Shown: positions 7,957 to 37,320 of the stretch, piece after piece
Layout of the letters: each line of letters opens with the position of its first letter
Numbering within the stretch: position 1 is the stretch's first letter
Source of the DNA: Escherichia phage AV110
Length of the DNA stretch: 64,000 nucleotides
Reading direction: 5' to 3' (one strand)
Sequence record: OR352940.1
The notes under the pieces: model-generated
Databases searched by the model: none
Seen by the model: only the letters and a program-made list of their open reading frames with translations
Told to the model about the DNA's origin: nothing
Program-made: the position numbers and the translations under genes

Positions 7957-7993
7957 CGAGAGAATTATACTCATCTCTCAAGAGTTTGTATAC
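7957..7993 (-). promoter_or_regulatory. Early sigma70-type promoter inside an inverted repeat (PeSL-type), arms GAGAGA/TCTCTC around TATAAT
   Basis: Minus-strand reading ..GTATACaaactcttgagagatgagTATAATtctctcgttgg..; near-identical copy at 37255-37320. Confidence 0.6.
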
Positions 7994-8232
7994 TATTTTT
8001 TAAGCATGAAAAGTAAGTAATTTGTATCACGTGGAGTAATATCAACACCCATATCAAAGATGCCTTTATAGATTGGGTATTTGTTTTCGGTTGTATCGAA
8101 GCTGAAACTATTTCCATCACAACTAACAGTAATAGCATCTGTTAAAATGTCATACTCAATCCTAACAATTGAATCCCCAATTTTAACGTCTAGGTGTTTT
8201 TTGAATTTGATAAAATCTAATTCTTGGGCCAT
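7993..8232 (-). CDS. Hypothetical protein
   Basis: 79-aa ORF with SD GAGGAAA. Confidence 0.5.
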   Translation of the reverse strand: MAQELDFIKFKKHLDVKIGDSIVRIEYDILTDAITVSCDGNSFSFDTTENKYPIYKGIFDMGVDITPRDTNYLLFMLKK

Positions 8233-8254
8233 GATATTTTCCTCATTTTAAGAC

Positions 8255-8293
8255 GATAGGAAGATAATAACATGTCTTCCTATCGTTGTACAT
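8255..8293 (-). promoter_or_regulatory. PeSL-type early promoter: 10-bp perfect inverted repeat GATAGGAAGA/TCTTCCTATC with -10 TATTAT in the loop
   Basis: Minus-strand reading aTGTACAacGATAGGAAGAcatgtTATTATCTTCCTATC, 17-bp spacing. Confidence 0.6.
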
Positions 8294-8295
8294 TA

Positions 8296-8508
8296 TTAAC
8301 CGAACTTTTTAGCGCCTTTCCAGCCTTCGTACATAACTGCGCAAGTCAGTAGTACAGCGTGCTGGCATTCTTTGTATTTGTAAATCCAGAACCAGCGTAA
8401 GAAGTCTTCGTCCTCAACACCGTTGAGTTTCATATTGGCAAAGAATTCGGCCCGTTCTTCACGAAGCTTTTGCGATAACATAGATTCAGGATTCATTTTG
8501 TGTTCCAC
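8296..8508 (-). CDS. Hypothetical protein
   Basis: 70-aa ORF. Confidence 0.45.
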   Translation of the reverse strand: MEHKMNPESMLSQKLREERAEFFANMKLNGVEDEDFLRWFWIYKYKECQHAVLLTCAVMYEGWKGAKKFG

Positions 8509-8634
8509 ACCCCATTTTCATCGATGAACTTAATCCAGTCATTTACAGACCATTTAGTTGTATCACCCTTTGGATTAACATTTAAAGTATATAATCCCTG
8601 CTTAAAAAGCATTCGTTTGATATTCATAATTTCC

Positions 8635-8928
8635 TCAACTGTAACGATAACATTCGTTAGCTTTACGTTTGGCTTCAGTATGAGAAGTATTATAATCATA
8701 ATCTTCTTTACTGTAAACATCTTTTTTCAACTTACGAACTTCTTTGCGGAGTTGTCGATTCATTTCATTCTTGACTTCAGAATCAACGCCTTTCATACGT
8801 TTCCATTTATCTGAGCGGAAAATGTTTTCAACCATGACTTTGTGGCTAACACCGTCAGGAGCTTTACGCTTACCAAAATAGTCGTAATCGCGAACTTTCA
8901 AATCTTTACGACGATATGTTTTACCCAT
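8635..8928 (-). CDS. Hypothetical highly basic protein
   Basis: ORF track 8635..8955 trimmed to MGKTYRR at 8928; Lys/Arg-rich. Confidence 0.4.
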   Translation of the reverse strand: MGKTYRRKDLKVRDYDYFGKRKAPDGVSHKVMVENIFRSDKWKRMKGVDSEVKNEMNRQLRKEVRKLKKDVYSKEDYDYNTSHTEAKRKANECYRYS

Positions 8929-8935
8929 AAGTACC

Positions 8936-9184
8936 TCAGAGGTTGATTGATACAATGCGTTTGATAAAATTCACTTCACTTACTGAAAGGTCTTTAAGAC
9001 CGATTGATTCTAAACGCTGAGTAAGCGTCAACATTGGGATATAATCCCAATGAGTTTTATTTGCTTGATAAGTACGAACGCCATTAGCAATTTCAACATA
9101 CAAATCGGAAATGGTAACGAATACCGGTCGCTCGTTATTTACATTAAGAGATAGAACAACTTTCTTTGAATCTAAACTAATCAT
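8936..9184 (-). CDS. Hypothetical protein
   Basis: 82-aa ORF. Confidence 0.5.
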   Translation of the reverse strand: MISLDSKKVVLSLNVNNERPVFVTISDLYVEIANGVRTYQANKTHWDYIPMLTLTQRLESIGLKDLSVSEVNFIKRIVSINL

Positions 9185-9363
9185 GGCTTAATTTCCTTCG
9201 CAATTGAACAGAAGATACCACGGTCACAAAGCATTTCACCAATTTCTGGATATTTGATTGAACGGTACCAAACATCCAGGTTTGAAACTTTGGTTATCTG
9301 TACTGCATTACCGTTGACAGAATAGTACTGGTCAACCTTAATTTCTTTATCTTCAATTGTCAT
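9181..9363 (-). CDS. Hypothetical small protein
   Basis: ORF track 9181..9525 trimmed to MTIEDKEIKV at 9363; the upstream part of the long ORF crosses a promoter and terminator. Confidence 0.4.
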   Translation of the reverse strand: MTIEDKEIKVDQYYSVNGNAVQITKVSNLDVWYRSIKYPEIGEMLCDRGIFCSIAKEIKP

Positions 9364-9514
9364 TTTATTTTCCTCTATAGTAGATGGTTTAATCTTAACA
9401 CATTTATTGAGGATGTAAACTGTTTTATGAAAATATTTTTTGATTTGAGAGGGGCACAAGGAGATAGTGAAGTGAAGATTCCAATGGATTATATTAGAAA
9501 TGAGATAAAGAAGA

Positions 9515-9529
9515 CCAGGCGGCACCTGG
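9515..9529 (-). terminator. Hairpin CCAGG-cggca-CCTGG directly after the nrdH-like stop
   Basis: 5-bp GC stem followed by a T-rich tract (TCTTCTTTATCT) on the minus strand. Confidence 0.4.
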
Positions 9530-9850
9530 TCAATCTTCTATGATATCAGAGTCATATCCTAATGAAATCAAGGACTTTTTAAACTCTGCAATATTCTTTT
9601 GTTTCTTATCATTTAAAAATATGACAGGATAACGAATATTAAGTGAAGTGAATCCTGCACGTTTAGCAAGAGATACGATTAAAGGACGGTCATATTCAAT
9701 CTTACCATTGTTAGTGAGGACTTTATAAAATGTATAAGGAGCATTGAGCTCCTTTAAAAGTTTTGTAACAGTATAACATCCTGGACAACGTCCAACTTCT
9801 TCAGGGATGCCATAAACTTCAATTTTATTCTTTGGGTTCGAGTTTTGTTC
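9530..9850 (-). CDS. nrdH: Glutaredoxin-like protein (NrdH-like, CPGC redox motif); start codon uncertain
   Basis: C-terminal ~100 aa of ORF 9530..10027 carries EVYGIPEEVGRCPGCY; no in-frame ATG near the domain start, so GTG at 9848-9850 (AAGGA 10 nt upstream) or ATT at 9821-9823 proposed. Confidence 0.6.
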   Translation of the reverse strand, partial: EQNSNPKNKIEVYGIPEEVGRCPGCYTVTKLLKELNAPYTFYKVLTNNGKIEYDRPLIVSLAKRAGFTSLNIRYPVIFLNDKKQKNIAEFKKSLISLGYDSDIIED

Positions 9851-10136
9851 CACGAGAAATAATTCCTTGATAAGCCCAGTACGGCGGGTTAACAGAATCA
9901 TCACCAGAATTTTCTTCAGGGAAATAAACCTGAATAACGAATCCGGATTCGTCAAAGGTAAAATACACTGTAGGCAGTTCACCAAGCAATTCGGAACGAG
10001 CGTTAATTTCTTCGAGGTCTTGCTCACGTCCAGCCCAAAAACTAGGATTTAAACTACATTCGTAAAAATAATAGTCATTACCAAACATATCAAAACCCTT
10101 CCAACTCTCTACCACGTACCGCTCAAAACTAATCAT
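9825..10136 (-). CDS. Hypothetical protein
   Basis: 103-aa ORF. Confidence 0.5.
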   Translation of the reverse strand: MISFERYVVESWKGFDMFGNDYYFYECSLNPSFWAGREQDLEEINARSELLGELPTVYFTFDESGFVIQVYFPEENSGDDSVNPPYWAYQGIISRGTKLEPKE

Positions 10137-10138
10137 AA

Positions 10139-10354
10139 TTAAGCCTTTTTATCAAGAACAGAATTCAGTTTATTAGTAATTTTGTCCAAACGTTCATTGA
10201 ATTCGCTGGAGGATAAACCCTTTTCCGGAGAAATTAAACTAATCACGAAAAATACACCAGTAAAAGGAATAAGAAAAATAGCTCCAACTGCCATAAACAA
10301 AAAGAACGTTACAGTTGTAAGAAAATCAGCTAAACCTTTACGAAATTTATACAT
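10139..10354 (-). CDS. Hypothetical small membrane protein
   Basis: 71-aa ORF with one long hydrophobic segment. Confidence 0.5.
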   Translation of the reverse strand: MYKFRKGLADFLTTVTFFLFMAVGAIFLIPFTGVFFVISLISPEKGLSSSEFNERLDKITNKLNSVLDKKA

Positions 10355-10464
10355 ATTTACCCTTAATTAACTAAGCATTGATAAGCATTAAACTATATTG
10401 CGAATAAAATTCTGGACCAAAATTAAAAATCATATCATTTATAGTATCCATAATGTAATTCAAT

Positions 10465-10935
10465 TTAATCATGTTTCCACACCCCATCGGTATTTGACCA
10501 AAGTCGCTGGTTATCTGATCCTCGCCACAGTTTTTTGGTCGGAAGATTTTTCTCATACTTCCCATCAATAATAACATCAACATATTTAAGCATTTCTAGT
10601 TGTTTAATATCTTCAAACTTATATCCTGTCCACAACCAAATGCTTTTATTTGGATAAAGATTTTTTACTGTTTGAACAATGCAATGAATAACATCTCGGT
10701 TATCAGGATAGAGAGGGTCACCTCCGGTTATAGTCAATCCTTCTATATAATCATTATTCAAACATTCAATTAATTGTTCTAGTGTTTCGCCAGTGAATGG
10801 AATACCATTTCTAGCATTCCATGTTGATTTATTATAACACCCTTCACATTTATGCAAACAACCTGTAACGAAAAGAACGACCCTGCAACCAGGGCCATTC
10901 ACAAAATCGCAAGGATAAAATCTATCATAATTCAT
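10465..10935 (-). CDS. nrdG: Anaerobic ribonucleotide reductase activating protein NrdG (radical SAM)
   Basis: 156-aa ORF; Cys-rich N-terminal cluster (..GCLHKCEGCYN..); stop overlaps nrdD start as in T4. Confidence 0.88.
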   Translation of the reverse strand: MNYDRFYPCDFVNGPGCRVVLFVTGCLHKCEGCYNKSTWNARNGIPFTGETLEQLIECLNNDYIEGLTITGGDPLYPDNRDVIHCIVQTVKNLYPNKSIWLWTGYKFEDIKQLEMLKYVDVIIDGKYEKNLPTKKLWRGSDNQRLWSNTDGVWKHD

Positions 10936-12749
10936 TGGTGTTTAACCCTATGCATGATTTCTTTATTTTTACCGAGATTAAATCCGCGTTCGTTCGGATT
11001 TCCCAAATAACCACAAGTTCTTCTTATTGTGTTCATCTTTTTAGGATCAGTTTCTCCGCAAACTGAACAAACAAATCCATTTTCAGTAGGAGTCATTTCA
11101 TGAGTACTTCCGCATGTAAAACATTTATCTACTGGCATATTAACACCAAAATAATCTAAATGTTGTGCAGCATAATCCCATACAGCCTCAAGTCCCTTTA
11201 AATTGTTTTTCATATCTGGAAGTTCAACATAAGAAATGTGACCGCCTGTCGCAATGAAATGATACGGCGCTTCACGAGAAATCTTTTCAAACGGAGTAAT
11301 ATTTTCTTCTACTGAAACATGGAAACTATTAGTGTACCAGCCTTTATCTGTAACATCTTTTACACTTCCATATTTTTCTGTGTCGAGTTTACAAAAGCGA
11401 TAACAAAGGTTTTCAGCAGGAGTAGAATATAAACTAAAAGCAAATCCGGTTCTTTCAGTCCACTGTTTAAGATGAGCATTCATTTTAGTTAAAATTTCTT
11501 GTCCAATATCACGACCGACAAGAATATTCAATTCGTGAATACCAATGTATCCCAAAGACACTGAACTTCTACCGTTTTTAAATAACTCAATTATATCGTC
11601 ATCAGGTTTAAGACGAACCCCAAATGCACCTTCTTGGTAAAGAATAGGAGCAACAGTCGCTTTAACTCCTTTTAAGGAACTAATTCTACACATCAAAGCT
11701 TCAAAACACAGGTCCATTCGTTCGTTAAATAGCTCAACAAATTTCTGTTCATTGAACTGTGTTCCAATATAAGAATCTAACGCAATACGAGGAAGATTCA
11801 GTGTTACAACACCAAGATTATTACGTCCATCAAGAATTTCATTACCAGTCGAATCTTTCCATACGCTCAAGAAACTACGGCAACCCATCGGAGAAACAGG
11901 AACTGAAGAACCGGTAATAGCTTTATTATTCTTAACCGAAATAATGTCAGGATACATTCTTTTGCTTGCACATTCTAACGCAAGTTGTTTAATATCATAG
12001 TTCGGATCGTCTTTATAAAGATTAACACCTTCTTCAACGAACATAACAAGCTTAGGGAAAATAGGAGTTATTCCATCACGACCAAGACCTTTAATGCGGT
12101 TTTTAAGAATTGCCTTCTGAATCATTCGTTCAGTCCAATCGGTTCCCGTACCAAATGTAATTGTTACAAAAGGAGTTTGTCCGTTTGAACTAAAGAGAGT
12201 ATTTACTTCATATTCATAAGCTTGGAATGCGTCATAGACATCTTTTTCTGTTTTAGATTGAGCATAATTCAGAATGTCTGGTATTTGCCATTTTTCTGCA
12301 TCTTCAACATGTTTAGCGTATGTACGTTTAACATAAGGAGAAAGAACTTTATCGACATTCGCAAATGTAGTTCCGCCATACTGATGTGAAGCAACCTGTG
12401 CAGTAATTTGTGCCATAATTGCAGTAGCAACGCCAATAGATTTAGGCGTTTCAATTTGAGCATTGCCTAATTTAAATCCATTCTCAAGCATCCCCTTTAA
12501 ATCGACTAAACAGCAATTGGTAAACGGAAGAGCAGGAGAATAATCAATATCATGCATGTGAATGATTCCGCTTTCATGCGCATTCATAATAAAAGACGGG
12601 ACCATATTTTTGGCAATGTGCTTAGACACAATACCAGCCATAAGGTCCCGTTGAGTTGGAAAAACACGAGAATCTTTATTAGCATTCTCGTTTAAAAGGT
12701 CTTTATTAGTTTTATGAATTAATCCTTCAATTTCTTTTTCAATTTTCAT
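10932..12749 (-). CDS. nrdD: Anaerobic ribonucleoside-triphosphate reductase NrdD (glycyl radical enzyme), uninterrupted
   Basis: 605-aa continuous ORF; C-terminal Zn-ribbon cysteines and glycyl-radical motif RRTCGYLG. Confidence 0.93.
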   Translation of the reverse strand: MKIEKEIEGLIHKTNKDLLNENANKDSRVFPTQRDLMAGIVSKHIAKNMVPSFIMNAHESGIIHMHDIDYSPALPFTNCCLVDLKGMLENGFKLGNAQIETPKSIGVATAIMAQITAQVASHQYGGTTFANVDKVLSPYVKRTYAKHVEDAEKWQIPDILNYAQSKTEKDVYDAFQAYEYEVNTLFSSNGQTPFVTITFGTGTDWTERMIQKAILKNRIKGLGRDGITPIFPKLVMFVEEGVNLYKDDPNYDIKQLALECASKRMYPDIISVKNNKAITGSSVPVSPMGCRSFLSVWKDSTGNEILDGRNNLGVVTLNLPRIALDSYIGTQFNEQKFVELFNERMDLCFEALMCRISSLKGVKATVAPILYQEGAFGVRLKPDDDIIELFKNGRSSVSLGYIGIHELNILVGRDIGQEILTKMNAHLKQWTERTGFAFSLYSTPAENLCYRFCKLDTEKYGSVKDVTDKGWYTNSFHVSVEENITPFEKISREAPYHFIATGGHISYVELPDMKNNLKGLEAVWDYAAQHLDYFGVNMPVDKCFTCGSTHEMTPTENGFVCSVCGETDPKKMNTIRRTCGYLGNPNERGFNLGKNKEIMHRVKHQ

Positions 12750-13219
12750 TTTAAACTCTTTCTAAGCTGCTTTTTGAATGAAGCTATTAATTGTGTTTTA
12801 GTATCTGATTCATTATATTCAAATCCTCTTTGAAGCATCTCGGTCATCATTTCCTCTTTACCTAGTCTTGAGAACTCTTTAGTTTTGTCTGGAACAAAAT
12901 TAGGATGGATATTATTATCAGAATAATCTTGTTTCAAATAAGCGAGAAGAGCTTCAAGCCATTCTAGGTAGTCGACATCACGGCCTTTAAGACCAGAACG
13001 GTTGAACTTATGCTTCATTTGACCTTCTGCTGCGTTGCACAGAGAACAGAGTAATCCACGAACTCTACCGGCTTTTGGCCCGTTTAATTCATGGTCGTGG
13101 TCAAGATGGTTACCTTGAACATCAGGGTCTAATTCACGGTGGCAAATAGGACACTTACCGTTCTGTGCATCATAAAATTTTTGTTTTTCTTCTTTATATT
13201 TTGCGCCTGATAATAACAT
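12746..13219 (-). CDS. 49: Endonuclease VII gp49 (Holliday junction resolvase)
   Basis: 157-aa ORF; N-terminal Zn-binding region and C-terminus match remembered T4 gp49. Confidence 0.9.
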   Translation of the reverse strand: MLLSGAKYKEEKQKFYDAQNGKCPICHRELDPDVQGNHLDHDHELNGPKAGRVRGLLCSLCNAAEGQMKHKFNRSGLKGRDVDYLEWLEALLAYLKQDYSDNNIHPNFVPDKTKEFSRLGKEEMMTEMLQRGFEYNESDTKTQLIASFKKQLRKSLK

Positions 13220-13254
13220 GATAAACCCTTACCTTAAATAGATAAGGGTATTTA

Positions 13255-13668
13255 TTAACTTAAACGTCTTTCTAAATATTCAATGTATTCTGCGGCTGCT
13301 TGCATCAGGTTACCTTCATAGCCGTCGTTATTTTCTTGTCCGGCTAATTTAGCTAAAGCATAAGAAATACGTTCACCTTCGAATTCGCCAAGTCCACCAT
13401 CACAAACTACTTGGTCAATTTCTTCGAGTTCATCTATTGAATGGGATTCCCAGAAGCACCAAAGAGAAGTATCACGGTCATAGATGCAAAGTTTCTCACC
13501 TGTGTTCAACAACACTTCGATAATGCCATGGTCGCCATAACCATCTTCGGTAGTAGTACCAATTACCTTGATGATCGTATCTTTCTTTAATTCAGGAAAC
13601 TTGACTTGTAGTTCTTCATCTTCTTTAACAATCTTGAACCATTTACCGCGAGTTTCAGAAATATTCAT
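13255..13668 (-). CDS. Hypothetical protein
   Basis: ORF track 13255..13806 trimmed to MNISETRGKW at 13668. Confidence 0.45.
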   Translation of the reverse strand: MNISETRGKWFKIVKEDEELQVKFPELKKDTIIKVIGTTTEDGYGDHGIIEVLLNTGEKLCIYDRDTSLWCFWESHSIDELEEIDQVVCDGGLGEFEGERISYALAKLAGQENNDGYEGNLMQAAAEYIEYLERRLS

Positions 13669-13669
13669 A

Positions 13670-13867
13670 TCAATATTCTCTATAAAAGTTACGATGAGAA
13701 CGTTTAGCTTTGCGAAGCTGACGTTTAGTAGGACGAACTGTAAATGGTTGTCCAGAGAAAAAATTCGGATCGGTTTTAATAAGCAAATACCAATCATGTT
13801 TACCATTTTTTAATAAACGGTACAATAATTTAACTTGCATAATAATCTCTTCCCATTTCCATATCAA
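13670..13867 (-). CDS. Hypothetical basic protein
   Basis: 65-aa ORF. Confidence 0.4.
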   Translation of the reverse strand: MIWKWEEIIMQVKLLYRLLKNGKHDWYLLIKTDPNFFSGQPFTVRPTKRQLRKAKRSHRNFYREY

Positions 13868-13968
13868 TTAATTCATTTATTGAAGGTTCATCATAACATG
13901 GTTCTTCGTCGTTGTAAACCGTTTTGACGTCTGGCTCGACAGTCTCCCATCGAGCAGAATACCACGGT

Positions 13969-16246: not shown

Positions 16247-16303
16247 AATATTTTCCTCTCGTTAAGATAGATTCATTATACTCCAACCATCCTTGGTTGT
16301 ACA

Positions 16304-21964: not shown

Positions 21965-22090
21965 TTTACCATACTCGTTTCAATAAGATTCACTATGCCG
22001 TTTACCATGTTATAAGTAAACATCGGATAATTATATTGTACTACAACATAAGCGATAAGCAAAAGTTTCATTTTGGTCTCCGTTCGTTTT

Positions 22091-22129
22091 GATAGGACCA
22101 CTATAACATAGTCCTATCAAGATGTAAAC
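22091..22129 (-). promoter_or_regulatory. PeSL-type early promoter (arms ATAGGACC/AGTCCTAT, GTTTAC -35)
   Basis: Plus-strand gataggaccactataacatagtcctatcaagatgtaaac. Confidence 0.55.
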
Positions 22130-22344
22130 TACCGATTATGTTTTAAAATACTATAAAGAGCTTCTACTTGGCTTGCATCCAGGTAAATAACATCATCATC
22201 TTGCTCAATGGAAATTCCGCCAGTATTACCTTCAACGAAATTACATTCGCATACTTCAACAGTGCGATATACATCACCAACTGGATGCTCAGGCTCCAGA
22301 ACAATCACACCATCTTCAGAACAACCGCTTGGGTCATATAACAT
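22129..22344 (-). CDS. Hypothetical small protein (MLYD.. paralog A)
   Basis: ORF track 22129..22419 trimmed to MLYDPSGC at 22344 (SD GAGGAAA). Confidence 0.45.
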   Translation of the reverse strand: MLYDPSGCSEDGVIVLEPEHPVGDVYRTVEVCECNFVEGNTGGISIEQDDDVIYLDASQVEALYSILKHNR

Positions 22345-22846: not shown

Positions 22847-22862
22847 TGATAGATGCCAAAAA

Positions 22863-22884
22863 GCCCCAACCATAAGGAAGGGGC
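22863..22884 (-). terminator. Rho-independent terminator GCCCC-(12 nt)-GGGGC + TTTTTGG after rI
   Basis: GC stem then U-run on the minus strand; same hairpin recurs at 38417-38438. Confidence 0.65.
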
Positions 22885-26447: not shown

Positions 26448-26499
26448 TTTCTCCTCTAGTTGTCATGTCTATAGTAACACAACTAGAGGAGAAGTAAAC
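26448..26499 (-). promoter_or_regulatory. PeSL-type early promoter with 15-bp perfect inverted repeat upstream of regB
   Basis: TTCTCCTCTAGTTGT ... ACAACTAGAGGAGAA, then GTTTAC -35; right arm supplies the regB SD. Confidence 0.65.
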
Positions 26500-28412: not shown

Positions 28413-28439
28413 ATTATTTCTCTTAAGGTTGGGGCCATT

Positions 28440-28684: not shown

Positions 28685-28740
28685 TTACCCATCCAAGTAA
28701 TTATGAATATACTATCACAATTCTAGGAGAAAGTAAACTG

Positions 28741-29043
28741 TTATTTACCTTTAATTACTTTAGCTGCTTCGATAGCCGCTTGCTGAAGGTCATCCATAGA
28801 CATACCGAATTTAGAAGCAAAGTTATCAATTTTCTTTTCGACAGCATTCAAAGGCTTGGCCTGTTTACCTTCATTAGCGCCAGGAAGAGCGAGAATACGC
28901 TCTTTGTCAATATAAAGGCTTACAAGTTTCTTACGGTCTTTATCGGACAAATCATGAAATGAATGGGCCTTTTTATTTATAGCGGCTTCTAATTTACCTG
29001 CACTCACTCGAGCTTCAGTAATAAATTCTTGATATGTTTTCAT
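28741..29043 (-). CDS. ipII: Internal protein II (capsid-targeted, MKTYQEF signal)
   Basis: 100-aa ORF matching remembered T4 IPII along its length. Confidence 0.8.
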   Translation of the reverse strand: MKTYQEFITEARVSAGKLEAAINKKAHSFHDLSDKDRKKLVSLYIDKERILALPGANEGKQAKPLNAVEKKIDNFASKFGMSMDDLQQAAIEAAKVIKGK

Positions 29044-29069
29044 TTTTGTTCCTATTGTTTTAATTTATG

Positions 29070-29384
29070 TTATTCTTTAGGGAAGTTTTTAGAGTATGCG
29101 TCATAAAGTTTATTACCGATGCGACGGAAAACTTTAGCTGCAAAACGGTTTTCAGGGTTTTTAATCATGATTTGCATCATGTAAGTTCCTGCATCCGAAA
29201 GAGCTTCTTCATAGTACCCATTAATTTCTTTAAGAGTCCTACGTTTACCACCAGGACCATCGACAGTAATTTTCCATTTACCTGTAGAAGTGCGGCTCGG
29301 TGGCTCAACTTGTTCAATCCAAATATAACCACCTTCAACGCGTTGGTTGGCGGATTCTGCAATAAATTCTTTATACGTTTTCAT
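29070..29384 (-). CDS. Internal protein with capsid-targeting signal (MKTYKEFIAE)
   Basis: 104-aa ORF; N-terminal 10 aa is the T4 capsid-targeting sequence, body unrelated to IPII. Confidence 0.65.
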   Translation of the reverse strand: MKTYKEFIAESANQRVEGGYIWIEQVEPPSRTSTGKWKITVDGPGGKRRTLKEINGYYEEALSDAGTYMMQIMIKNPENRFAAKVFRRIGNKLYDAYSKNFPKE

Positions 29385-29447
29385 TTTTGTTTCCTTGTTT
29401 GTTTTGATAGAGTAATTATACCATATTAATACTTAAGCGTAAACAAT

Positions 29448-29708
29448 TTAAGCTTTACCGCCAGAAATAATTCCGAAGTTGTTAAAATCGTATCCAATAT
29501 CGTCAACATCTACTTTAGGACTTGCTACAACATAAGCAATTTCACTACGTTTTGCATAGGTGTTGATTTCTTTACCATCGCCACCTAAGAAAGAATACCC
29601 ATTACGTTTTAATGAGCCAAAGTCTTCCGCATCACCAATGAAAGCTTTAACTTTAAATTTAGGACCTTTGGCATCTGCTTCAGCGATAAATTCTTGATAC
29701 ATTTTCAT
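29448..29708 (-). CDS. Internal protein with capsid-targeting signal (MKMYQEFIAE)
   Basis: 86-aa ORF with the same N-terminal signal. Confidence 0.65.
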   Translation of the reverse strand: MKMYQEFIAEADAKGPKFKVKAFIGDAEDFGSLKRNGYSFLGGDGKEINTYAKRSEIAYVVASPKVDVDDIGYDFNNFGIISGGKA

Positions 29709-29714
29709 TTTTCC

Positions 29715-30128
29715 TTAGTAAATTGATTTACCATAGTATTTGTACCAAGTCGGACGTTGAGCAATTTTTTCATCTAAGCGTGCTTGACTTATCGCAATGG
29801 ACGCTTCGGACGGGACATAATTATTACGAAATTCGGCAGGGATGTCGGAAATATCCTGGACAGTCGTGTCCTTGATTTTGAAACCACGTTTCAAGCATTC
29901 AGCGATTAGCTCGATTTGTCGTAAACGTAAAAATTCGAGTTTGTCGTAAAAGAATGTTACGTGACCTGTGCCTAAGATAAATGTTGGAGAGATTTTAAAA
30001 TCCTTTACACGTTTACCGTTTTGAACATGTTTACGGACTGCACCAAATACGCGTGGTAATTCACGATACTCAGCCATAAGATGTTGGTCGGCCAGTTCAG
30101 AAACAAGTGTTAAATTGATACGGGTCAT
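29715..30128 (-). CDS. denV: Endonuclease V (pyrimidine-dimer DNA glycosylase) DenV
   Basis: ORF track 29715..30140; start at MTRINLTLV (30128); matches remembered T4 DenV throughout. Confidence 0.92.
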
Positions 30129-30186
30129 AATTTCCTCCAAGTAGTTGATGAATGTATAGTATCAAAACCCTTGGAGGAAGTAAACA
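30129..30186 (-). promoter_or_regulatory. PeSL-type early promoter upstream of denV (arms TTCCTCCAAG/CTTGGAGGAA)
   Basis: Minus-strand reading GTTTACttcctccaagggttttgatactatacattcatcaactacttggaggaaattATG. Confidence 0.6.
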
Positions 30187-30953: not shown

Positions 30954-30987
30954 AATACCTCCCACGTTTATAGGAGGTATTTATTAC

Positions 30988-31446: not shown

Positions 31447-31672
31447 CTCGGTCCCATGATTTGGCCATTAATTCGGACATAAATTCTTCAATGCGCGTTT
31501 CTTTAGATGGACTTTCACTATTAGAGACCGCAAGTTTGTAATCTGCAATAGGACAGAACATATCAAGGTCCATATTAAGGACGTCTTTGATTTTTTCTTC
31601 TGACACATCTTTATCGTATGTGTACAGATAACTATCACATGATTCTGATTTAATGTAAATTGCTATACTCAT
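31436..31672 (-). CDS. Hypothetical acidic protein
   Basis: ORF track 31436..31687 trimmed to MSIAIYIK; ATGA overlap with upstream gene. Confidence 0.45.
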   Translation of the reverse strand: MSIAIYIKSESCDSYLYTYDKDVSEEKIKDVLNMDLDMFCPIADYKLAVSNSESPSKETRIEEFMSELMAKSWDRDDE

Positions 31673-32160
31673 CTCAAATTCCTGCATTCGGTAATAAAAC
31701 GTTCAACTTCATTATTCTTGGCTTTTATCTTGTCTTTATGTTCTTGTAAACTACTTTTAATAAGATTAATAATGATGGCGGCGGTACCGCCGCCAATGAT
31801 GCCACCAACAACACTTATTATACTAGATGCTAATAAGATAGCAATAATATCAACAAAACCGAAAGAACTCACCTTAGTACTAAAAAACCATACCGACGGT
31901 ACAAATATAATCCATCCTGTTATCCATTGGCACTTATTGAAAAACTTTTCAAGCTCAGCTTGAGTTGTTCGTATTACTTCATCGATAGGTTGATATCCAT
32001 TAATGTATCTGTTCACAATAATACCTGCTGGCTGGTCGATTTTAAATTCTTGGCAAATATGTTTCACTAAGTAGAATGGACAGGATGTCCATTCTACTGA
32101 ATAGTATGAAATACCTTCGTTGCCATCGTCTATATTAGACCAATATGTTTTGTTAATCAT
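31669..32160 (-). CDS. Hypothetical membrane protein with C-terminal ..RFITECRNLR tail
   Basis: 163-aa ORF; hydrophobic segments in the C-terminal half. Confidence 0.5.
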   Translation of the reverse strand: MINKTYWSNIDDGNEGISYYSVEWTSCPFYLVKHICQEFKIDQPAGIIVNRYINGYQPIDEVIRTTQAELEKFFNKCQWITGWIIFVPSVWFFSTKVSSFGFVDIIAILLASSIISVVGGIIGGGTAAIIINLIKSSLQEHKDKIKAKNNEVERFITECRNLR

Positions 32161-32846
32161 TACCAGCCTTCCATAGGGAATTCCAGATAAACTTGGGCAT
32201 TGACACGAATTTCATTGGTAATCTTTTTAACTCGGTCTGTATTACGAGATACACGTCCGAACCAACGCCATCCATTACTAATTGCACGAGAACCAGTGTG
32301 CCATGTTTGCCAATCAAACTGAAGAAGAGTACGATCTGGAGCTTCCCATTTCTCTAGTTCACCTTTTTCGATTTTTTCGAGGACTTCTTTGTGCCACTGG
32401 CGATAGATAAGTTCGCCATCAGGAATCTGACTGAACTCTGCAGTTCCTGTTGCAAAATGAGTAGGACACACATCAGCGTTAACAAGACCAAGAATGTGTT
32501 CAGACAAATAGCGAGGATTGTCATAGTCAGGTTGTCCTGCAGTAATAAAGTGTTGACCAACTGGAATATCCGGGCGTGGTACATCGTCATGGTGATAACC
32601 TGGGATAGCAGGGTACCAACCAGGCATCAGCATGTGGACTCGTGAATCAAATACAACCTGGTCGGTGTTCCAATCATCTGGCAAGTTCATGATGAAGCTG
32701 CGAGTAATAGGACCGCCGTTATTATAAGCAAATTCTAAACTACAGTTGAAGAACATAGGTTCGTTTTTAATCTGGTCGTTTTTAATCGCATGAGCAAAAC
32801 CACCTACTGCACGAGCTTGACTATTAAACACTTTAGAACTATTCAT
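32160..32846 (-). CDS. Hypothetical protein (weak HxD..H..RxS pattern)
   Basis: 228-aa ORF; motif assignment speculative. Confidence 0.5.
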   Translation of the reverse strand: MNSSKVFNSQARAVGGFAHAIKNDQIKNEPMFFNCSLEFAYNNGGPITRSFIMNLPDDWNTDQVVFDSRVHMLMPGWYPAIPGYHHDDVPRPDIPVGQHFITAGQPDYDNPRYLSEHILGLVNADVCPTHFATGTAEFSQIPDGELIYRQWHKEVLEKIEKGELEKWEAPDRTLLQFDWQTWHTGSRAISNGWRWFGRVSRNTDRVKKITNEIRVNAQVYLEFPMEGW

Positions 32847-32847
32847 A

Positions 32848-33153
32848 TTATTTTCCTCGACATTCTTTAATGAAATTTTCTAGATTGGTAGATTCAATAG
32901 CTTTTTTACGAGCTTCTGCGTGTTCTTCTTCGGACAATTTACGTTTATAATTGACCCAGACATTATTGTCGAAACCAGACGTGGCATATAATAACAAAGC
33001 TCCAACGAATAGCAAAAATGGTGATAAAAATATACAACCAGGAACACCATCCATACTGTAAGCCTTTTGTAATACTGCAACAGAAAGAGTTGCGTAAAAA
33101 GGTGATGCAAGTATTGTTAAAAGACCAATTCGATTGGTTTCTGTTAATTTCAT
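32848..33153 (-). CDS. Hypothetical membrane protein with C-terminal ..ENFIKECRGK tail
   Basis: 101-aa ORF with two hydrophobic segments. Confidence 0.5.
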   Translation of the reverse strand: MKLTETNRIGLLTILASPFYATLSVAVLQKAYSMDGVPGCIFLSPFLLFVGALLLYATSGFDNNVWVNYKRKLSEEEHAEARKKAIESTNLENFIKECRGK

Positions 33154-33173
33154 AATATTCTCCTCATGTTTTA

Positions 33174-33211
33174 ATAGGACTACTATAACATAGTCCTATA
33201 ATTGTGTAAAC
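33174..33211 (-). promoter_or_regulatory. PeSL-type early promoter (ATAGGACT/AGTCCTAT arms)
   Basis: Plus-strand ataggactactataacatagtcctataattgtgtaaac. Confidence 0.55.
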
Positions 33212-33223
33212 AGTTTTGTGAAG

Positions 33224-34180
33224 TTATTTGAAAGGTTTTACCATATGGAAATTTTGTTTGAAACGTTTTACGTAATCGTCATGTCCTAAGCTTTGGTACA
33301 TACTTACAACTTTGCTGTAGTTTTCCCAGGCGTATTCACGGAACCAACCGGAGGTGATGCTTGTGCAGACTTTTTCTAATGCCATCATGAAACTGGCTTC
33401 AGGGTTAATTTTAAAGTCATTAGGAATCTGAGAACGTTCTAATGCTAGTACACATGATTCTTCATATACACCGGCCAATTTGACCATTTCTGGTAACGAT
33501 TCGAACTTCTCGCGTGAGGTCATGACTTCAGAACCGTCTTTCATATAAAATGTATACGCTGGGCGGTCTGTTAGCGCAATGGCTTCGTGAATAGTATCAT
33601 GGTCATATGTATAGATGTCATCTTTAAAGAACGCACTTTTAGAAGTGTCAAGAACTGGGTGAGCATAGTTCAAGGTTTCTTTCTGGCGTTTCAGCATAAT
33701 TTCAGTAAGTTCATCGTTCAGTGTAACACCTTTACCACGAAGATACTGAATATGGTTCATAGTCTTTAAAAAGAATGGATTATTTTTCTTGAAACGATGA
33801 GACATCTTAATTGCAAGACATATCTCAGGAGTTGCCCAGTAAAACCCGTTCAAACGGTCTTTAGACAAATTTTTCTCGGCGTATTTTAAAAGGTCATAAG
33901 AAGACGTGAAATCTTCAGGAGTGAGTTCACCGACTAATTCACGGACATTAGTGATTGCCGGAACAATATATGCTTCAAAATGAGTTTCGCGTCCATTATG
34001 GAAGCATTTGAAAACTTGGACATCAGGGTTATCTTGGTGAACATATACACCCATCATTTGATTTTTGAATGCATTCCAAGAACATTGGTCCGCAATAAAG
34101 TCCCAATCACTATTTTTGATAGCGCTAGAATCAATAAGACCGTGATAGTGAAGCGCACGAGAACCAATAACTAACATCAT
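33224..34180 (-). CDS. Hypothetical protein with possible nucleotidyltransferase-like N-terminus (GS..DWD)
   Basis: 318-aa ORF; N-terminal VIGSRALHYHGLIDSSAIKNSDWDF loosely fits the NTase pattern. Confidence 0.45.
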   Translation of the reverse strand: MMLVIGSRALHYHGLIDSSAIKNSDWDFIADQCSWNAFKNQMMGVYVHQDNPDVQVFKCFHNGRETHFEAYIVPAITNVRELVGELTPEDFTSSYDLLKYAEKNLSKDRLNGFYWATPEICLAIKMSHRFKKNNPFFLKTMNHIQYLRGKGVTLNDELTEIMLKRQKETLNYAHPVLDTSKSAFFKDDIYTYDHDTIHEAIALTDRPAYTFYMKDGSEVMTSREKFESLPEMVKLAGVYEESCVLALERSQIPNDFKINPEASFMMALEKVCTSITSGWFREYAWENYSKVVSMYQSLGHDDYVKRFKQNFHMVKPFK

Positions 34181-34208
34181 AATATTTTCCTCGGATTAAT
34201 TCATTAAC

Positions 34209-34460
34209 TTAAATTTCACGACATGCGATATCATATTCATCCCAGAGGTCGTCATGTGAAGCCTCTACCAATGGAACGATTGTACCGTTTATGTCTTCAT
34301 TATAAGGACAAATTGTACAGTGCGCATCTTCGAATCGGATGCCTTTGTGTTCAGATTTTTTATAACGCATATCGAATATCTTTGCAAACTTTTCACGAGT
34401 AATAGTTTTAGCAACTACTTCGGTTCCGATACTTTCGTAATAAATCATTGTGGACTCCAT
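34209..34460 (-). CDS. Hypothetical protein
   Basis: 83-aa ORF. Confidence 0.45.
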   Translation of the reverse strand: MESTMIYYESIGTEVVAKTITREKFAKIFDMRYKKSEHKGIRFEDAHCTICPYNEDINGTIVPLVEASHDDLWDEYDIACREI

Positions 34461-34468
34461 TTGTTTTG

Positions 34469-34506
34469 ATAGGACTACTATAACATAGCCCTATCTTGTT
34501 GTAAAC
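34469..34506 (-). promoter_or_regulatory. PeSL-type early promoter
   Basis: Plus-strand gataggactactataacatagccctatcttgttgtaaac. Confidence 0.55.
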
Positions 34507-34510
34507 TGTT

Positions 34511-34708
34511 TTAGCAAGAATAACTAGATGATACCCAGCCTTGAACAGTGATACTATTGTGGGATAATGAGATCGCGTCCTGGATATTCAGACCTGCGTT
34601 ATCTTCAATCCATAATGTAACTTCTTCGCGTTCTTCTGTTGCAATTTGGAACAGGTTTTCCAGGGCAGCTACTGCCGTACGTACAGCACAATCTAATTCA
34701 CGAGACAT
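34511..34708 (-). CDS. Small protein, WVSSS..C-tail family member 1
   Basis: 65-aa ORF ending GWVSSSYSC. Confidence 0.45.
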   Translation of the reverse strand: MSRELDCAVRTAVAALENLFQIATEEREEVTLWIEDNAGLNIQDAISLSHNSITVQGWVSSSYSC

Positions 34709-34717
34709 ATTGTTTCC

Positions 34718-34990
34718 TTAGCAAGTGTGAGAAGATGCAACCCAACCACCAGTTTCGAGGCTCAGGTTGTAGTCGTATTGGTAAACGTCAGCCCATTCAG
34801 CATAGCCATTTTTTGTACAACGTTCAAGATCGGCTTTAAGATGTCCGGGTGAATGATAGGTTCCACCCATACCATAAGCTGGGTACAAGTTGAATGTTGT
34901 GTTTTGTTTATCAGCAATTTCTTTGGCAGCCTCAATAGCTGCATAGATTTTTGCTACAGCTTCAGCCAGTTCGGTTTGTTCTTTAGACAT
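34718..34990 (-). CDS. Small protein, WVSSS..C-tail family member 2
   Basis: 90-aa ORF ending GGWVASSHTC. Confidence 0.5.
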   Translation of the reverse strand: MSKEQTELAEAVAKIYAAIEAAKEIADKQNTTFNLYPAYGMGGTYHSPGHLKADLERCTKNGYAEWADVYQYDYNLSLETGGWVASSHTC

Positions 34991-34999
34991 AATGATTCC

Positions 35000-35305
35000 T
35001 TAGCACAACGCAGAAGACGAAACCCAAGCACCTTCAGTAATAACGTATCCATTACCTTCACGCTTAACATCGCCGCCATTATTTTCAATTTCATCTTTCA
35101 TCCACTGGGATACGATTTCACCCTTAGGATAATAAGTACGACCGCTACCATAATCACCTACAGAAAATGATACGGCATATTGGTCTGCGATCTTTGTTGC
35201 TTCTTCTTCGATACGTTCAGCTTGATTCAGAAGTTTATAAATTGCATCTGAAGCGGATTTGGCATCATTAAACTCTGGTACTTTAATTTCAATAATCTTA
35301 CTCAT
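35000..35305 (-). CDS. Small protein, WVSSS..C-tail family member 3
   Basis: 101-aa ORF ending GAWVSSSALC; central region homologous to member 2. Confidence 0.5.
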   Translation of the reverse strand: MSKIIEIKVPEFNDAKSASDAIYKLLNQAERIEEEATKIADQYAVSFSVGDYGSGRTYYPKGEIVSQWMKDEIENNGGDVKREGNGYVITEGAWVSSSALC

Positions 35306-35661
35306 TTTCTACATTCCTTAATAAAGTTTTCGATTGTTTCATTTTCACGTCTAGCTAGGAGTTCATTATAACTAATCATTTGAGAAGCGTAAACCTTTTT
35401 ATTTTTCTTGTTGTGGTTTATAAAACCGTAGTAAAAATAGACTACAGTACAAAATGATGCGATGGATGCAAAGGCTTGGGTATACCGTAAGTCCTGCCAT
35501 TGGTCTGTGAATCCACCAGTGTTCCCTATAAATCCTAACACAACGCCGTCAATAAGAAATCCAACTAATCCAAAGGCAAATCCCATGCCAATACTCATAA
35601 TAAAAATTAGAATGTTCTCACCAAGAGAAGGCCATACGGTTAAGAGTTGTGGCTTTTGCAT
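35302..35661 (-). CDS. Hypothetical membrane protein with C-terminal ..ENFIKECRK tail
   Basis: 119-aa ORF with hydrophobic segments. Confidence 0.5.
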   Translation of the reverse strand: MQKPQLLTVWPSLGENILIFIMSIGMGFAFGLVGFLIDGVVLGFIGNTGGFTDQWQDLRYTQAFASIASFCTVVYFYYGFINHNKKNKKVYASQMISYNELLARRENETIENFIKECRK

Positions 35662-36035
35662 CTTATCTCCTTAACGAATTCCATAGCTTCTTCATATTCA
35701 TACTTTTTAACAGCTTCATCATACTGAGCTTGGGCTTTTGCGCACTGAACTTTCCACTCACGAACTCGAGCTCTGTGATGACGGCCTTGGTGCCAATATC
35801 CTACCCAATTAATAGGCATTAATAAAAACGGTACAATAAGTGGTGCGACGAACATTAATGAAAACGCTGCATCGGACGATATAACTTTATTGGAATCTAA
35901 AACAGCTCCTATAATCATAAAGATTAAAAATGCTAAAGCTAAAATAGGGCCAAATAGTACTTCGTTTGGGATTAATTTACGTTTGTATTCGTATGCCCAG
36001 GGCTTACTTGGCATGTATAGGGTTGGCTTTGACAT
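35640..36035 (-). CDS. Hypothetical membrane protein
   Basis: ORF track 35640..36065 trimmed to MSKPTLYMP at 36035. Confidence 0.45.
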   Translation of the reverse strand: MSKPTLYMPSKPWAYEYKRKLIPNEVLFGPILALAFLIFMIIGAVLDSNKVISSDAAFSLMFVAPLIVPFLLMPINWVGYWHQGRHHRARVREWKVQCAKAQAQYDEAVKKYEYEEAMEFVKEIRCKSHNS

Positions 36036-36606
36036 ATTCTCTACATTCCATAATAAATTGCTCAAGGATTAAATTGTTAGTGAAATTAGGACTAACAACC
36101 ATAGTTTCATAAAGCGCATCAATAGCACTTAAAGCATCAACTCTTTTAAGCAAAGGCTTGCCTTCATACATAGTTTCAGAATCGACGATTAAAGTGAAGT
36201 AGTATTTTTTATTATTGACCAGAACTTCTGTATCAATATAAAACATGTTAGACCTTAAAAGCTTATCTCTAAAACCATAATAATCTTTAGAGCGTTCGCT
36301 GATATATTCCCATTCGGTGTTTAAACAACAAACAGACCATGTAGGAGCAACGAAATCGGTGAATCTAATATCATGGTCTGCAACTAGTTTAGCAATAGCT
36401 CCGATATCATGAATCATAATACCTGGGGCTAATAAAGATTTTCTGCTATGGCTAGCTGTTTTCTCAGTAGTCTCATAAGAAGACGACCAGTACCATTTAC
36501 GCCCAGTTGCAACATATCGTAATGAATCAACTAAAGACGTAGGTGGATTTACCTTATCTCGGAACTCTTCGAACATTGAGTCAATATCATTATTTTGGTT
36601 TCGCAT
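36004..36606 (-). CDS. Hypothetical protein with C-terminal ..EQFIMECREY.. motif
   Basis: ORF track 36004..36627 trimmed to MRNQNN at 36606 (SD AAGGAG). Confidence 0.5.
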   Translation of the reverse strand: MRNQNNDIDSMFEEFRDKVNPPTSLVDSLRYVATGRKWYWSSSYETTEKTASHSRKSLLAPGIMIHDIGAIAKLVADHDIRFTDFVAPTWSVCCLNTEWEYISERSKDYYGFRDKLLRSNMFYIDTEVLVNNKKYYFTLIVDSETMYEGKPLLKRVDALSAIDALYETMVVSPNFTNNLILEQFIMECREYVKANPIHAK

Positions 36607-36628
36607 GTTAACTCCTTTATTATCCAAA

Positions 36629-36646
36629 AGGAGGACCGGAGTCCTC
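36629..36646. terminator. Perfect hairpin GGAGGAC-cgga-GTCCTCC with T-runs on both sides
   Basis: 7-bp stem; on the minus strand followed by TTTTGG, directly after the stop of the gene at 36656..37249. Confidence 0.6.
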
Positions 36647-36655
36647 CGTATTATT

Positions 36656-37249
36656 TTATTTCAAAGAGTTAATATATTCTTGTACATCAGCAGAAGTGGT
36701 TTCAACGCCGGCTGGAGTGCCATTGAACGTTTCAACACGAGTCAGAGTGTCTTCGATATCAACCTTAGTCAGTGCAGCGATTTCAATTACATCATCGGCC
36801 GTAGAGATACCAAGGGCATTGGCTGCTCGAGTTTCACGAATGTATTCGAGTTTGATTGCCAGGTTCTGACGAGCATCGTCAAGTTCAACCACCTTACGAG
36901 CAATTTCAATTCGCATAGCGGCATACCCGTCAGCTTTTGTATTAAGTTGTTCGGCAGTTCGACGATACAGAAGACCAAGCTTAGCATGCATGGTAACATC
37001 TTGTCCTTCAGCCAGGAGCTTACGAATTTCACGTTCCTTAGAAGCGGCTTGCTTGTTCTTTTCATTAACAAGTTCGCGAATACGTTTTTCTTCATTAATA
37101 GATTTAACAGAAGCCGTTTTTAGTTCTTTGATTTGGGTAATCAACTTATCTGCAGCTGCGTTATACTGTTCTTCGACAGTCAGATTTTTAGCCATAGCAG
37201 TACCCAGTTTAGTGCGGATGAATTCAACAAGTTTCTTCAGTGTGTTCAT
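36656..37249 (-). CDS. Coiled-coil protein, function unknown
   Basis: ORF track 36656..37264 trimmed to MNTLKK (SD GAAAGG); strongly helical, charged composition. Confidence 0.55.
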
Positions 37250-37254
37250 ATTAT

Positions 37255-37320
37255 TACCTTTCAATTGGTGGTTTATTATCCAACGAGAGCATTATACTCT
37301 GCTCTCAAGAGTTTGTAAAT
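37255..37320 (-). promoter_or_regulatory. Early promoter in stem-loop; near-copy of the element at 7957-7993 with compensatory arm change (GAGAGC/GCTCTC)
   Basis: Minus-strand reading TTTACAaactcttgagagcagagTATAATgctctcgttggataataa. Confidence 0.65.

Follow-up and report, generated by a model that had tools for sequence, protein, structure and literature searches.

Two near-identical elements lie far apart in the 64,000-nt stretch of Escherichia phage AV110 DNA analysed here (OR352940.1; hereafter the window), each with inverted-repeat arms around a promoter -10 hexamer and with arm letters that differ in a complementary manner between the copies. They raise the question of whether evolution maintains the pairing itself and, if so, in which molecule a hairpin at such a position would act. 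Here, we describe the anatomy of the two elements, their covariation across related phages, their place among T-even early promoters, and the readings that could account for them.

Two look-alike elements and their promoters

On the plus strand, the arms are GAGAGA (7958-7963) and TCTCTC (7974-7979) at site 1 and GAGAGC (37285-37290) and GCTCTC (37301-37306) at site 2, so that the copies differ in their innermost pair, A-T at site 1 and C-G at site 2. These two arm pairs, reported in a preliminary description of the sequence, were confirmed by direct reading and by a pattern search, in which CAACGAGAGNNTTATACTCNNCTCTCAAGAGTTTGTA matched the window exactly twice (7954-7990 and 37281-37317) and had zero matches in 100 shuffles. 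The flanks, said to be almost identical over about 50 bp, belong to 62-nt repeats (7945-8006 and 37272-37333; repeat finder, family D13) that are 90% identical. The arms do bracket the -10 hexamer as claimed, but TATAAT is the minus-strand reading and the plus strand has ATTATA; the second element, previously placed at 37255-37320, is properly centred on 37284-37319. A third difference is a loop base beside the changed pair, T vs A on the minus strand. The minus-strand orientation, the genome-wide spread among early promoters, and the published class to which such elements belong (promoter-early stem-loop, PeSL) had all been missed.

The window shares 99% identity with Mosigvirus genomes and represents the minus-strand-encoded early region of an RB69-like, T4-type coliphage of this genus. 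The minus strand has about 25 early promoters, which fall into several repeat families (repeat finder and promoter scan). A scan of the whole window against Rfam at gathering score yielded only two tRNAs, with no match at the stem-loops.

Both sites are identified as sigma70-type early promoters, ahead of homologues of gene 55.2 (7594-7926, minus strand; orthologous locus annotated in LR027383.1) and e.6 (36656-37249, minus strand; MK373784.1 annotation, with T4 e.6 at 69312-69905 as a match). They share a TTTACA-like -35, a 17-nt spacer, TATAAT, an upstream A-tract, and a downstream Shine-Dalgarno and ATG. At site 1 (cassette core 7945-8006, minus strand; repeat finder and pattern search), an A-rich tract (7996-8004) lies beyond the stop codon of an upstream 79-aa ORF (7993-7995; ORF list), which abuts the -35 TATACA (7987-7992; promoter scan, 10/12 consensus matches, 17-nt spacer). 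The 5' arm TGAGAGA (7974-7980) occupies about -20 to -14 of the promoter spacer, the -10 TATAAT (7964-7969) is within a 10-nt loop, and the 3' arm TCTCTCG (7957-7963) spans about -6 to +1, followed by Shine-Dalgarno GAGG (7935-7938) and ATG (7924-7926), all on the minus strand. Transcription is predicted to start at 7957, the last base of the 3' arm, given its spacing of 7 nt from the -10 and the purine at alignment column 37.

At site 2 (repeat unit 37272-37333, minus strand; same searches), the stop codon (37320-37322) of an upstream frd.3-like ORF (37320-37547) abuts the -35 TTTACA (37314-37319; 11/12 matches, 17-nt spacer), followed on the same strand by the 5' arm TGAGAGCA (37300-37307), the -10 TATAAT (37291-37296), the 3' arm TGCTCTCG (37284-37291), Shine-Dalgarno AAGG (37257-37260) and ATG (37247-37249); the start site is predicted at 37284. 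The last T of the -10 pairs with an A of the 5' arm, leaving an 8-nt loop. The minus-strand letters immediately before the -35 are ...ttaaaaaaTAG at site 1 and ...ttaaaaaaTAA at site 2. The helix has 7 bp when the flanking T.G wobble is counted, and 8 bp at site 2 with the A-T pair. RNA folding predicts a weak hairpin for site 1 (-8.5 kcal/mol, z -1.4) and one of moderate strength for site 2 (-12.6 kcal/mol, z -3.2), and at both sites the Shine-Dalgarno is unpaired in the predicted read-through fold, the hairpin not reaching it.

Covariation across the cassette family

A single paired change between two copies is thin evidence. The alignment across related phages comprised 18 distinct copies, that of T4 motB among them, drawn from Mosig-, Tequatro-, Dhaka- and Gaprivervirus phages. 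Family members precede motB (T4), e.6 (fPS-2), ndd (VR20) and a pseT.2-adjacent ORF (JS98, VR25); two more copies occur elsewhere in one Mosigvirus genome, and most Mosigvirus records have three matching places among the matches listed. The inverted repeat links the spacer at about -20 to -14 with about -6 to +1, leaving the -10 in the loop. Across the 18 copies the arms are the most variable stretch of the core, yet 97.6% of cells are paired in the 7-bp helix, compared with just 36-56% in slid registers. Changes on both sides are seen in 5/7 pairs, with arm versions such as GGGACC/GGTCCC (T4 motB), GGGGTC/GACCCC (VR20 ndd) and GGGAGT/ACTCCC (fPS-2 e.6), and the observed covariation score was reached by 0/500 shuffles. 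At least six independent double changes occurred within the family, and its non-Watson-Crick cells comprise 8 G.U (sense strand), 2 C/T and 1 C/A. These alignments show that complementarity of the arms around the -10 has been maintained by evolution.

The proposed selection on pairing thus holds strongly across the family, but the pair on which it was first based is the least constrained. An unpaired arm substitution, of the kind put forward earlier as evidence that would speak against selection, was found at site 1 of mar007P3 and EP02SG, which reads GAGAGC...TCTCTC and has a C/T mismatch. The exact 76-nt mismatch version occurs in 14 phage records and the window version in 25. Since the mismatch version loses the site 1 hairpin, the structure cannot be essential at this promoter. 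The change could also stem from gene conversion by the paralogous copy.

Hairpin promoters in T-even phages

Among 146 candidate early promoters of three T-even genera, 29.5% have a stem scoring at least 8 that spans the -10, compared with 1.9% of shuffles. These hairpin promoters share the same layout in all three genera with unrelated arm sequences, and in about 40% of the -10-spanning hairpins the 3' arm includes the Shine-Dalgarno. When best stems were sought without constraint, 16/30 were centred at most 3 nt from the -10. For 25 window promoters, arms pair with their cognate partners at -11.0 kcal/mol and with non-cognate arms at -7.5 kcal/mol (permutation p <5e-5). At promoters 22129 and 8293, orthologues show further double changes in which A-T has become G-C, and G.U as well as A.C intermediates persist.

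The commonest hairpin promoter type (family D1) is exemplified by GATAGGACTA-8 nt-TAGTCCTATC around TATAGT (41851-41878, minus strand; -16.6 kcal/mol, z -6.2), with other copies at 22088-22135, 33170-33217 and 34465-34512. In an example of a second type (26449-26493, minus strand; -25.6 kcal/mol), the spacer arm TTCTCCTCTAGTTGT pairs with the Shine-Dalgarno-containing ACAACTAGAGGAGAA; similar hairpins occur at promoters 30185, 22846, 38378 and 9420.

Junctions of insertions and deletions also concentrate near the promoters. Of 104 junction ends relative to five Mosigviruses, 31% fall no more than 60 nt from a promoter -10, where a random distribution would give 8.6%; junctions that several genomes share are not independent observations in this count. 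No insertion/deletion junction falls at site 1 or site 2 in the five genome comparisons, and the cassette stands before non-orthologous genes in other genera.

Proposed role and alternative readings

We consider it probable, at roughly 60%, that the two elements, PeSL-type early-promoter cassettes whose pairing is selected, serve as insulators in read-through RNA and as recombination homology. As the predicted start is downstream of both arms, the hairpin would form only in read-through RNA (or in DNA); the promoter's own transcript would begin at the final base of the 3' arm. Most likely, the hairpin acts as an insulator in read-through transcripts from upstream promoters, where it may pause or attenuate read-through, or else mark the position behind the upstream ORF as a site of processing or 3' stabilisation. 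At the sister promoters, the equivalent hairpin would mask the read-through RNA's ribosome binding site, so that translation would proceed from the gene's own promoter only. The repeated cassettes may double as recombination homology that moves small ORFs, as in the PeSL model. Both the start sites and the read-through at these promoters are inferred. Among 63 unique stems, G.T pairs outnumber A.C pairs (34 vs 14, p=0.0055), an excess that, like the prevalence of G.U among the non-Watson-Crick cells of the family, leans toward sense-strand RNA; it comes mainly from Tequatrovirus (19 to 3), with 10 to 9 in Mosigvirus, and single substitutions in orthologues comprise 5 G.U and 4 A.C.

Under a strict promoter-terminator reading of PeSLs, the stem-loops would be efficient terminators that end upstream transcripts right before each promoter. 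The stems do sit right behind the stop codon of the upstream ORF, and an RB49/phi1 PeSL stem, when set between lacZ and a strong promoter, cut expression to roughly the same extent as the rrnB T1 terminator (PMC2839356). Rho-independent terminators likewise form a nascent-RNA hairpin directly behind an ORF, but theirs is G+C-rich with an immediate U-run, whereas the stems here are short and A/U-rich (-8.5 and -12.6 kcal/mol) and are followed by GUUGGAUAAUAAA with no T-run, and a terminator scan reports neither of them. Without a U-run, the hairpins of sites 1 and 2 are not classical terminators. Canonical GC-rich hairpins with T-runs do occur in the window at expected termination points (36630-36647, 22850-22884 and 38404-38438), and two of these directly precede promoters that keep their own hairpin. 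We regard termination as a rather unlikely main function.

The inverted repeat might instead work in DNA, where a hairpin or cruciform would offer the -10 as a single-stranded loop and initiation would depend on supercoiling or single-strand binding proteins. The geometry is tightly tied to the -10 (16/30 best stems centred within 3 nt), the start site is downstream of both arms, and the G.T excess on the non-template strand also fits a non-template DNA hairpin; moreover, single-strand PeSL stems block sequencing polymerases (PMC2839356). Yet in the commonest geometry the -7 T that sigma70 has to flip out is base-paired, and the extension of about 40% of hairpins to the Shine-Dalgarno is sensible only in RNA. 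Stems of 6-8 bp with loops of 8-10 nt are also unlikely to extrude as cruciforms. Promoters recognised through a hairpin in the DNA are known for the virion RNA polymerase of coliphage N4 and for Frpo of the F plasmid, which likewise combine promoter elements with an inverted repeat. The N4 polymerase is a phage enzyme whose recognition site is a stem of 5-7 bp with a loop of 3 nt, and Frpo-type promoters rebuild duplex -35 and -10 hexamers from folded single-stranded DNA; here, the sigma70 hexamers are already ordinary duplex and the -10 is in the loop. Action in DNA appears distinctly unlikely. It is a long shot that a non-template-strand hairpin with the -10 in its loop renders the early promoters of T-even phages sensitive to supercoiling or to single-strand binding proteins of the phage; if it did, it would offer a physical means of switching early promoters off abruptly 2-3 minutes after infection, a shut-off the mechanism of which has been described as not completely understood (PMC3014915).

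Complementarity could also be a by-product of mutation or recombination, and not a selected function, through quasi-palindrome template switching or gene conversion between cassette copies, which would transfer a change between the arms or shift the two arms as a unit. Quasi-palindrome-templated mutation is classic in T4. Site 1 of mar007P3/EP02SG resembles a site-2 patch, its 5' arm and adjacent loop base being of site-2 type and its 3' arm of site-1 type, and crossovers inside PeSL loops have been seen experimentally (PMC2839356). However, the site 1 loop change beside the arm differs from what templating off the other arm predicts, and such processes leave unexplained the same register around the -10 in dozens of promoters with unrelated arms, the complementarity of spacer arms to the Shine-Dalgarno, and the independent double changes inside one family. 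This origin therefore seems very unlikely. An operator for a dimeric DNA-binding regulator would fit an inverted repeat overlapping a promoter, but is extremely improbable and already contradicted by the covariation, since the arm sequences vary freely while complementary, and a site bound by protein would keep its sequence rather than its pairing.

Should the pairing prove functional, about 30% of the early promoters of T-even phages would be enclosed in a hairpin that exists only in read-through RNA, making each small early gene dependent on its own promoter and insulating packed transcription units, and the same repeats would be recombination handles that shuffle accessory genes among phages. 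The present analysis adds explicit covariation evidence for selection on the stems, itself a modest addition, together with PeSL-type elements in RB69-like, Dhaka- and Gapriver-type phages, a constant register around the -10, and two stem classes, one ending at the start site and one masking the Shine-Dalgarno. These results may be of use in the annotation and engineering of T4-like therapeutic phages, and would not surprise specialists.

Comparison with known systems

PeSL cassettes have been described in the T4-type phages RB49/phi1 (Arbiol et al., 2010; PMC2839356) and in PST/T4 and nt-1/KVP40 (Comeau et al., 2014; PMC4122927), with parts that include stems overlapping the -10 and G-T pairs (PMC2839356, PMC4122927). 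A PeSL stem reduced the expression of lacZ downstream of it, and crossovers were mapped to the loop; terminator or attenuator activity of the stem and mini-circles from recombination between cassettes count among the features of the class (PMC2839356). By their sequence features, the elements at sites 1 and 2 match these published cassettes, a class already known from T4-type phages. The T4-group promoter consensus TTTACW-N17-TAYWAT corresponds to TATACA-17-TATAAT (7992-7964) and TTTACA-17-TATAAT (37319-37291) on the minus strand; the A/T-rich tract before the -35 holds the stop of the upstream gene, with ORFs ending at 7993 and 37320; a 7-8 bp helix surrounds the -10, although with modest stability at site 1; and the 3' end bears the Shine-Dalgarno and start codon of the downstream gene. 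Dispersed, mutually similar copies stand mostly before small early ORFs in plastic regions, the link to insertions, deletions and gene replacements between close relatives is found for the window promoters as a group, and the chimeric mar007P3/EP02SG copy is consistent with a crossover in the loop. PeSL stems are polyG/polyC, whereas those here are A/U-rich, and the PST/T4 figure legend places them just upstream of the promoter, whereas the -10 lies at their centre both here and in T4 itself. In the two PeSL papers (PMC2839356, PMC4122927), we found no description of these elements in RB69-like (Mosigvirus) phages, and their text contains neither 'compensatory' nor 'covariation' nor words related to these.

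The T4 genes e, soc, 49 and I-TevI have a promoter inside a hairpin that masks translation (reviewed in PMC3014915). As in the elements described here, their 5' arm lies upstream of the proximal start, so that the helix would form only in transcripts from upstream promoters. They embed a late promoter, whereas the promoters here are early, and masking of their type is not found at sites 1 and 2, where the helix stops at the start site, short of the Shine-Dalgarno; a Shine-Dalgarno within the 3' arm, as in these genes, is found at window promoters 26499, 30185, 22846, 38378 and 9420.

Results

The preliminary description had singled out two distant, near-identical promoter stem-loops, and both exist as described: a core degenerate pattern has exactly two matches in the window (7954-7990 and 37281-37317) and none in 100 shuffles, and a repeat finder pairs 7945-8006 (site 1) with 37272-37333 (site 2) as a 62-nt repeat of 90% identity. 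The window shares 99% identity with Mosigvirus (RB69-like, T4-type) coliphages, with early genes on the minus strand. On this strand, each site is a sigma70-type early promoter (TATACA-17 nt-TATAAT at site 1 and TTTACA-17 nt-TATAAT at site 2), with an A-rich tract 5' and a Shine-Dalgarno sequence and ATG 3', followed by the 55.2 and e.6 homologues, respectively; the stop codon of an upstream small ORF abuts each -35. On the plus strand, the arms read GAGAGA/TCTCTC at site 1 and GAGAGC/GCTCTC at site 2, and a third difference between the sites is in the loop, adjoining the changed pair. The 5' arm is part of the spacer; the 3' arm follows between the -10 and the predicted start, placing the -10 in the loop. 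Each promoter's own transcript is thus expected to have neither arm, judging from the usual 7-nt spacing and a purine at the predicted start position, and only read-through transcripts or DNA could form the hairpin. At 8001-8006, 5' of the site 1 -35 (minus strand ATGCTTA), TGCTTA resembles a MotA box; lying some 33 nt 5' of the -10, it is too distant for a standard middle promoter that uses this hexamer.

The change between the two sites had been read as compensatory, and the paired change is real, yet this A-T/C-G pair is the innermost and least constrained of the helix. In phages mar007P3 and EP02SG, site 1 reads GAGAGC...TCTCTC, a C/T mismatch with which the hairpin is no longer predicted; this exact version occurs in 14 records versus 25 for the window version, and C-G is the site-1 state in other Mosigviruses. 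A tree of the 2.2-kb flanks, made to order the three site-1 states (C-G, C/T and A-T), shows mosaic flanks and the C/T state in two clades, so the states are compatible with two steps, C-G to C/T and C/T to A-T, a path not proven against gene conversion of a short patch from the site-2 copy, which fits them equally well.

Selection on the structure itself, the wider claim of the preliminary description, is supported by far broader evidence. BLAST finds the 76-nt element at 714 places in 369 phage records. Family copies were taken from GenBank phage records; an IMG/VR scan that did not constrain the arms gave three loci, all of the site-2 version, in a collection poor in these coliphages. Covariation was analyzed in 18 distinct copies (an earlier 15-copy version was also run), comprising site-1 and site-2 orthologues of several Mosigviruses, two more copies from one Mosigvirus genome outside the window, T4 motB, fPS-2 e.6, JS98 and VR25 (adjoining pseT.2), VR20 ndd, CEV1 and two Dhakavirus copies. 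The -35, the spacer segment AAACTCTT, AGAG and the -10 are near-invariant, and the variable part is the arms, which occur as GAGAGA/TCTCTC, GAGAGC/GCTCTC, GGGACC/GGTCCC, GGGAGC/GCTCCC, GGGAGT/ACTCCC and GGGGTC/GACCCC, all complementary. Across the 7-bp helix, 97.6% of cells (one base pair in one aligned copy) hold a standard pair, and both sides change in 5 of 7 pairs; the observed pairing or covariation score was reached by 0 of 500 shuffles, and pairing is 36-56% when the partner is slid by 1-3 columns. Every copy also has a predicted outer helix, CTCT with GGA(G) further downstream, which gives no covariation evidence, because its 5' side never varies and its register shifts. Orthologues of the other window promoters have more double changes, with G.U and A.C intermediates both still present. 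A protein operator is rejected as the reason for the palindrome, since arm sequences differ freely among copies while complementarity is kept, and a chance origin of the pairing was considered and rejected. Two copies of the ACAAACTCTT promoter family lie on the minus strand of a Mosigvirus genome, outside the window, at 27495 in L025 (KY608965.1) and at 6579 in L026; in one of them, A-T stands in place of the G.T of the CEV1 copy.

The stem-loop is not peculiar to sites 1 and 2, since most of the approximately 25 early promoters on the window's minus strand have an inverted repeat across the -10. Their arms are quite different, for example GATAGGACTA/TAGTCCTATC (several copies), GATAGGAAGA/TCTTCCTATC and AGGTCTATA/TATAGACCT, and elsewhere the Shine-Dalgarno region is the partner of a spacer arm, such as TTCTCCTCTAGTTGT. 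Cognate arms pair at -11.0 kcal/mol versus -7.5 kcal/mol for arms from different promoters (permutation p <5e-5). The pattern recurs in T4 and another Tequatrovirus, in a Dhakavirus and in the remainder of one Mosigvirus genome: 29.5% of 146 candidate early promoters have a stem score of at least 8 across the -10, versus 1.9% of shuffles. Stems of score at least 7 end at the start site in about 57% of cases and extend over the Shine-Dalgarno in about 38%; in an unconstrained stem search, 16 of the 30 best stems were centred within 3 nt of the -10. A decayed stem is seen at 37576-37605 (minus strand), upstream of a frd.3-like ORF, where the common 3' arm TAGTCCTATC is kept, the 5' arm is degenerate and the arm duplex reaches only -1.9 kcal/mol.

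The favoured reading is that the hairpin would act as sense-strand RNA, because of the G.U excess in the family (8 G.U, 2 C/T and 1 C/A among non-Watson-Crick cells), the excess of G.T over A.C across genera, and the stems that reach the Shine-Dalgarno, which make sense only in RNA. The G.T to A.C ratio is 34 to 14 in 63 unique stems with genera pooled (p=0.0055), an asymmetry that comes from Tequatrovirus, is not seen within Mosigvirus (10 to 9) and is therefore suggestive only; G.U versus A.C is significant only with genera pooled, was borderline in the first, smaller set and is flat for orthologous single substitutions. At sites 1 and 2, the Shine-Dalgarno stays free in the read-through fold, and we infer that the stem most likely serves attenuation, pausing, processing or 3' protection of read-through RNA behind the upstream ORF. 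Classical intrinsic termination by these stems is rejected, as no T-run follows 3' and the scan calls promoters there, not terminators; true GC-rich terminators with T-runs are present elsewhere in the window. Repeated terminator-like GC-rich hairpins followed by T-runs lie on the minus strand at 22850-22884 and 38404-38438 (94% alike) and at 38947-38981. Immediately downstream of the first two lie early promoters 22846 and 38378, respectively, which retain their own Shine-Dalgarno-masking hairpins, so each pair is a terminator-plus-promoter composite.

Between the window and five related Mosigviruses, 31% of insertion, deletion and replacement junctions fall within 60 nt of a -10, versus 8.6% expected, and the same cassette stands before unrelated genes in different genera. 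An early-promoter sequence of 53 nt (16249-16301) aligns to either flank of a segment of about 950 bp that is present in all five Mosigviruses and missing from the window, as is expected of a deletion or insertion that arose by recombination between two promoter cassettes. Phage SQ17 (MW882907.1) has 14 nt in place of a 5.4-kb block (35042-40409) that holds site 2, both tRNA genes and several small ORFs. Within this block, the frd.3-like small ORF at 37320-37547 adjoins e.6 and has an early promoter on each side; frd.3 is beside frd in JS98, and e.7 occupies this position in T4. The ORF looks like a relocated single-ORF cassette. Small ORFs in tandem at 29010-29747 (spacing 341 and 324 nt), with one distant copy at 42147-42193, conserve the ribosome-binding region and first codons (repeat families D4, D7 and D9).

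Discussion

No Rfam family matches the elements; the only Rfam and ARAGORN matches in the whole window are the minus-strand genes for tRNA-Arg(TCT) (40197-40273) and tRNA-Met(CAT) (40302-40376). The 2006 RB69 genome paper predicted 57 early promoters without mention of stems or repeats, and a T4 transcription review notes additional consensus regions in T4 early promoter alignments without mention of inverted repeats; no usable cappable-seq mapping of T4 start sites or terminators was found in a literature search. In T4 e, soc, 49 and I-TevI, translation of read-through RNA is masked by a hairpin with an embedded late promoter (PMC3014915), whereas the sister promoters described here are early promoters in which the same design would mask translation of read-through RNA.

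The closest published elements are the promoter-early stem-loops (PeSLs) of RB49/phi1, PST/T4 and nt-1/KVP40 (Arbiol et al., 2010, PMC2839356; Comeau et al., 2014, PMC4122927). The searched text of these papers has no mention of RB69-like phages and no word beginning "compensat" or "covari". In PeSLs, an A/T-rich tract holding the upstream stop codon is followed by sigma70-like hexamers, a Shine-Dalgarno and a start codon; the stem-loop frequently overlaps the -10, and G-T pairs occur in it. PeSLs are present in many copies in plastic regions, with crossovers in the loop, and were proposed to serve as attenuators and recombination sites (PMC2839356, PMC4122927). All features of the window elements match, and they belong to this already published class.
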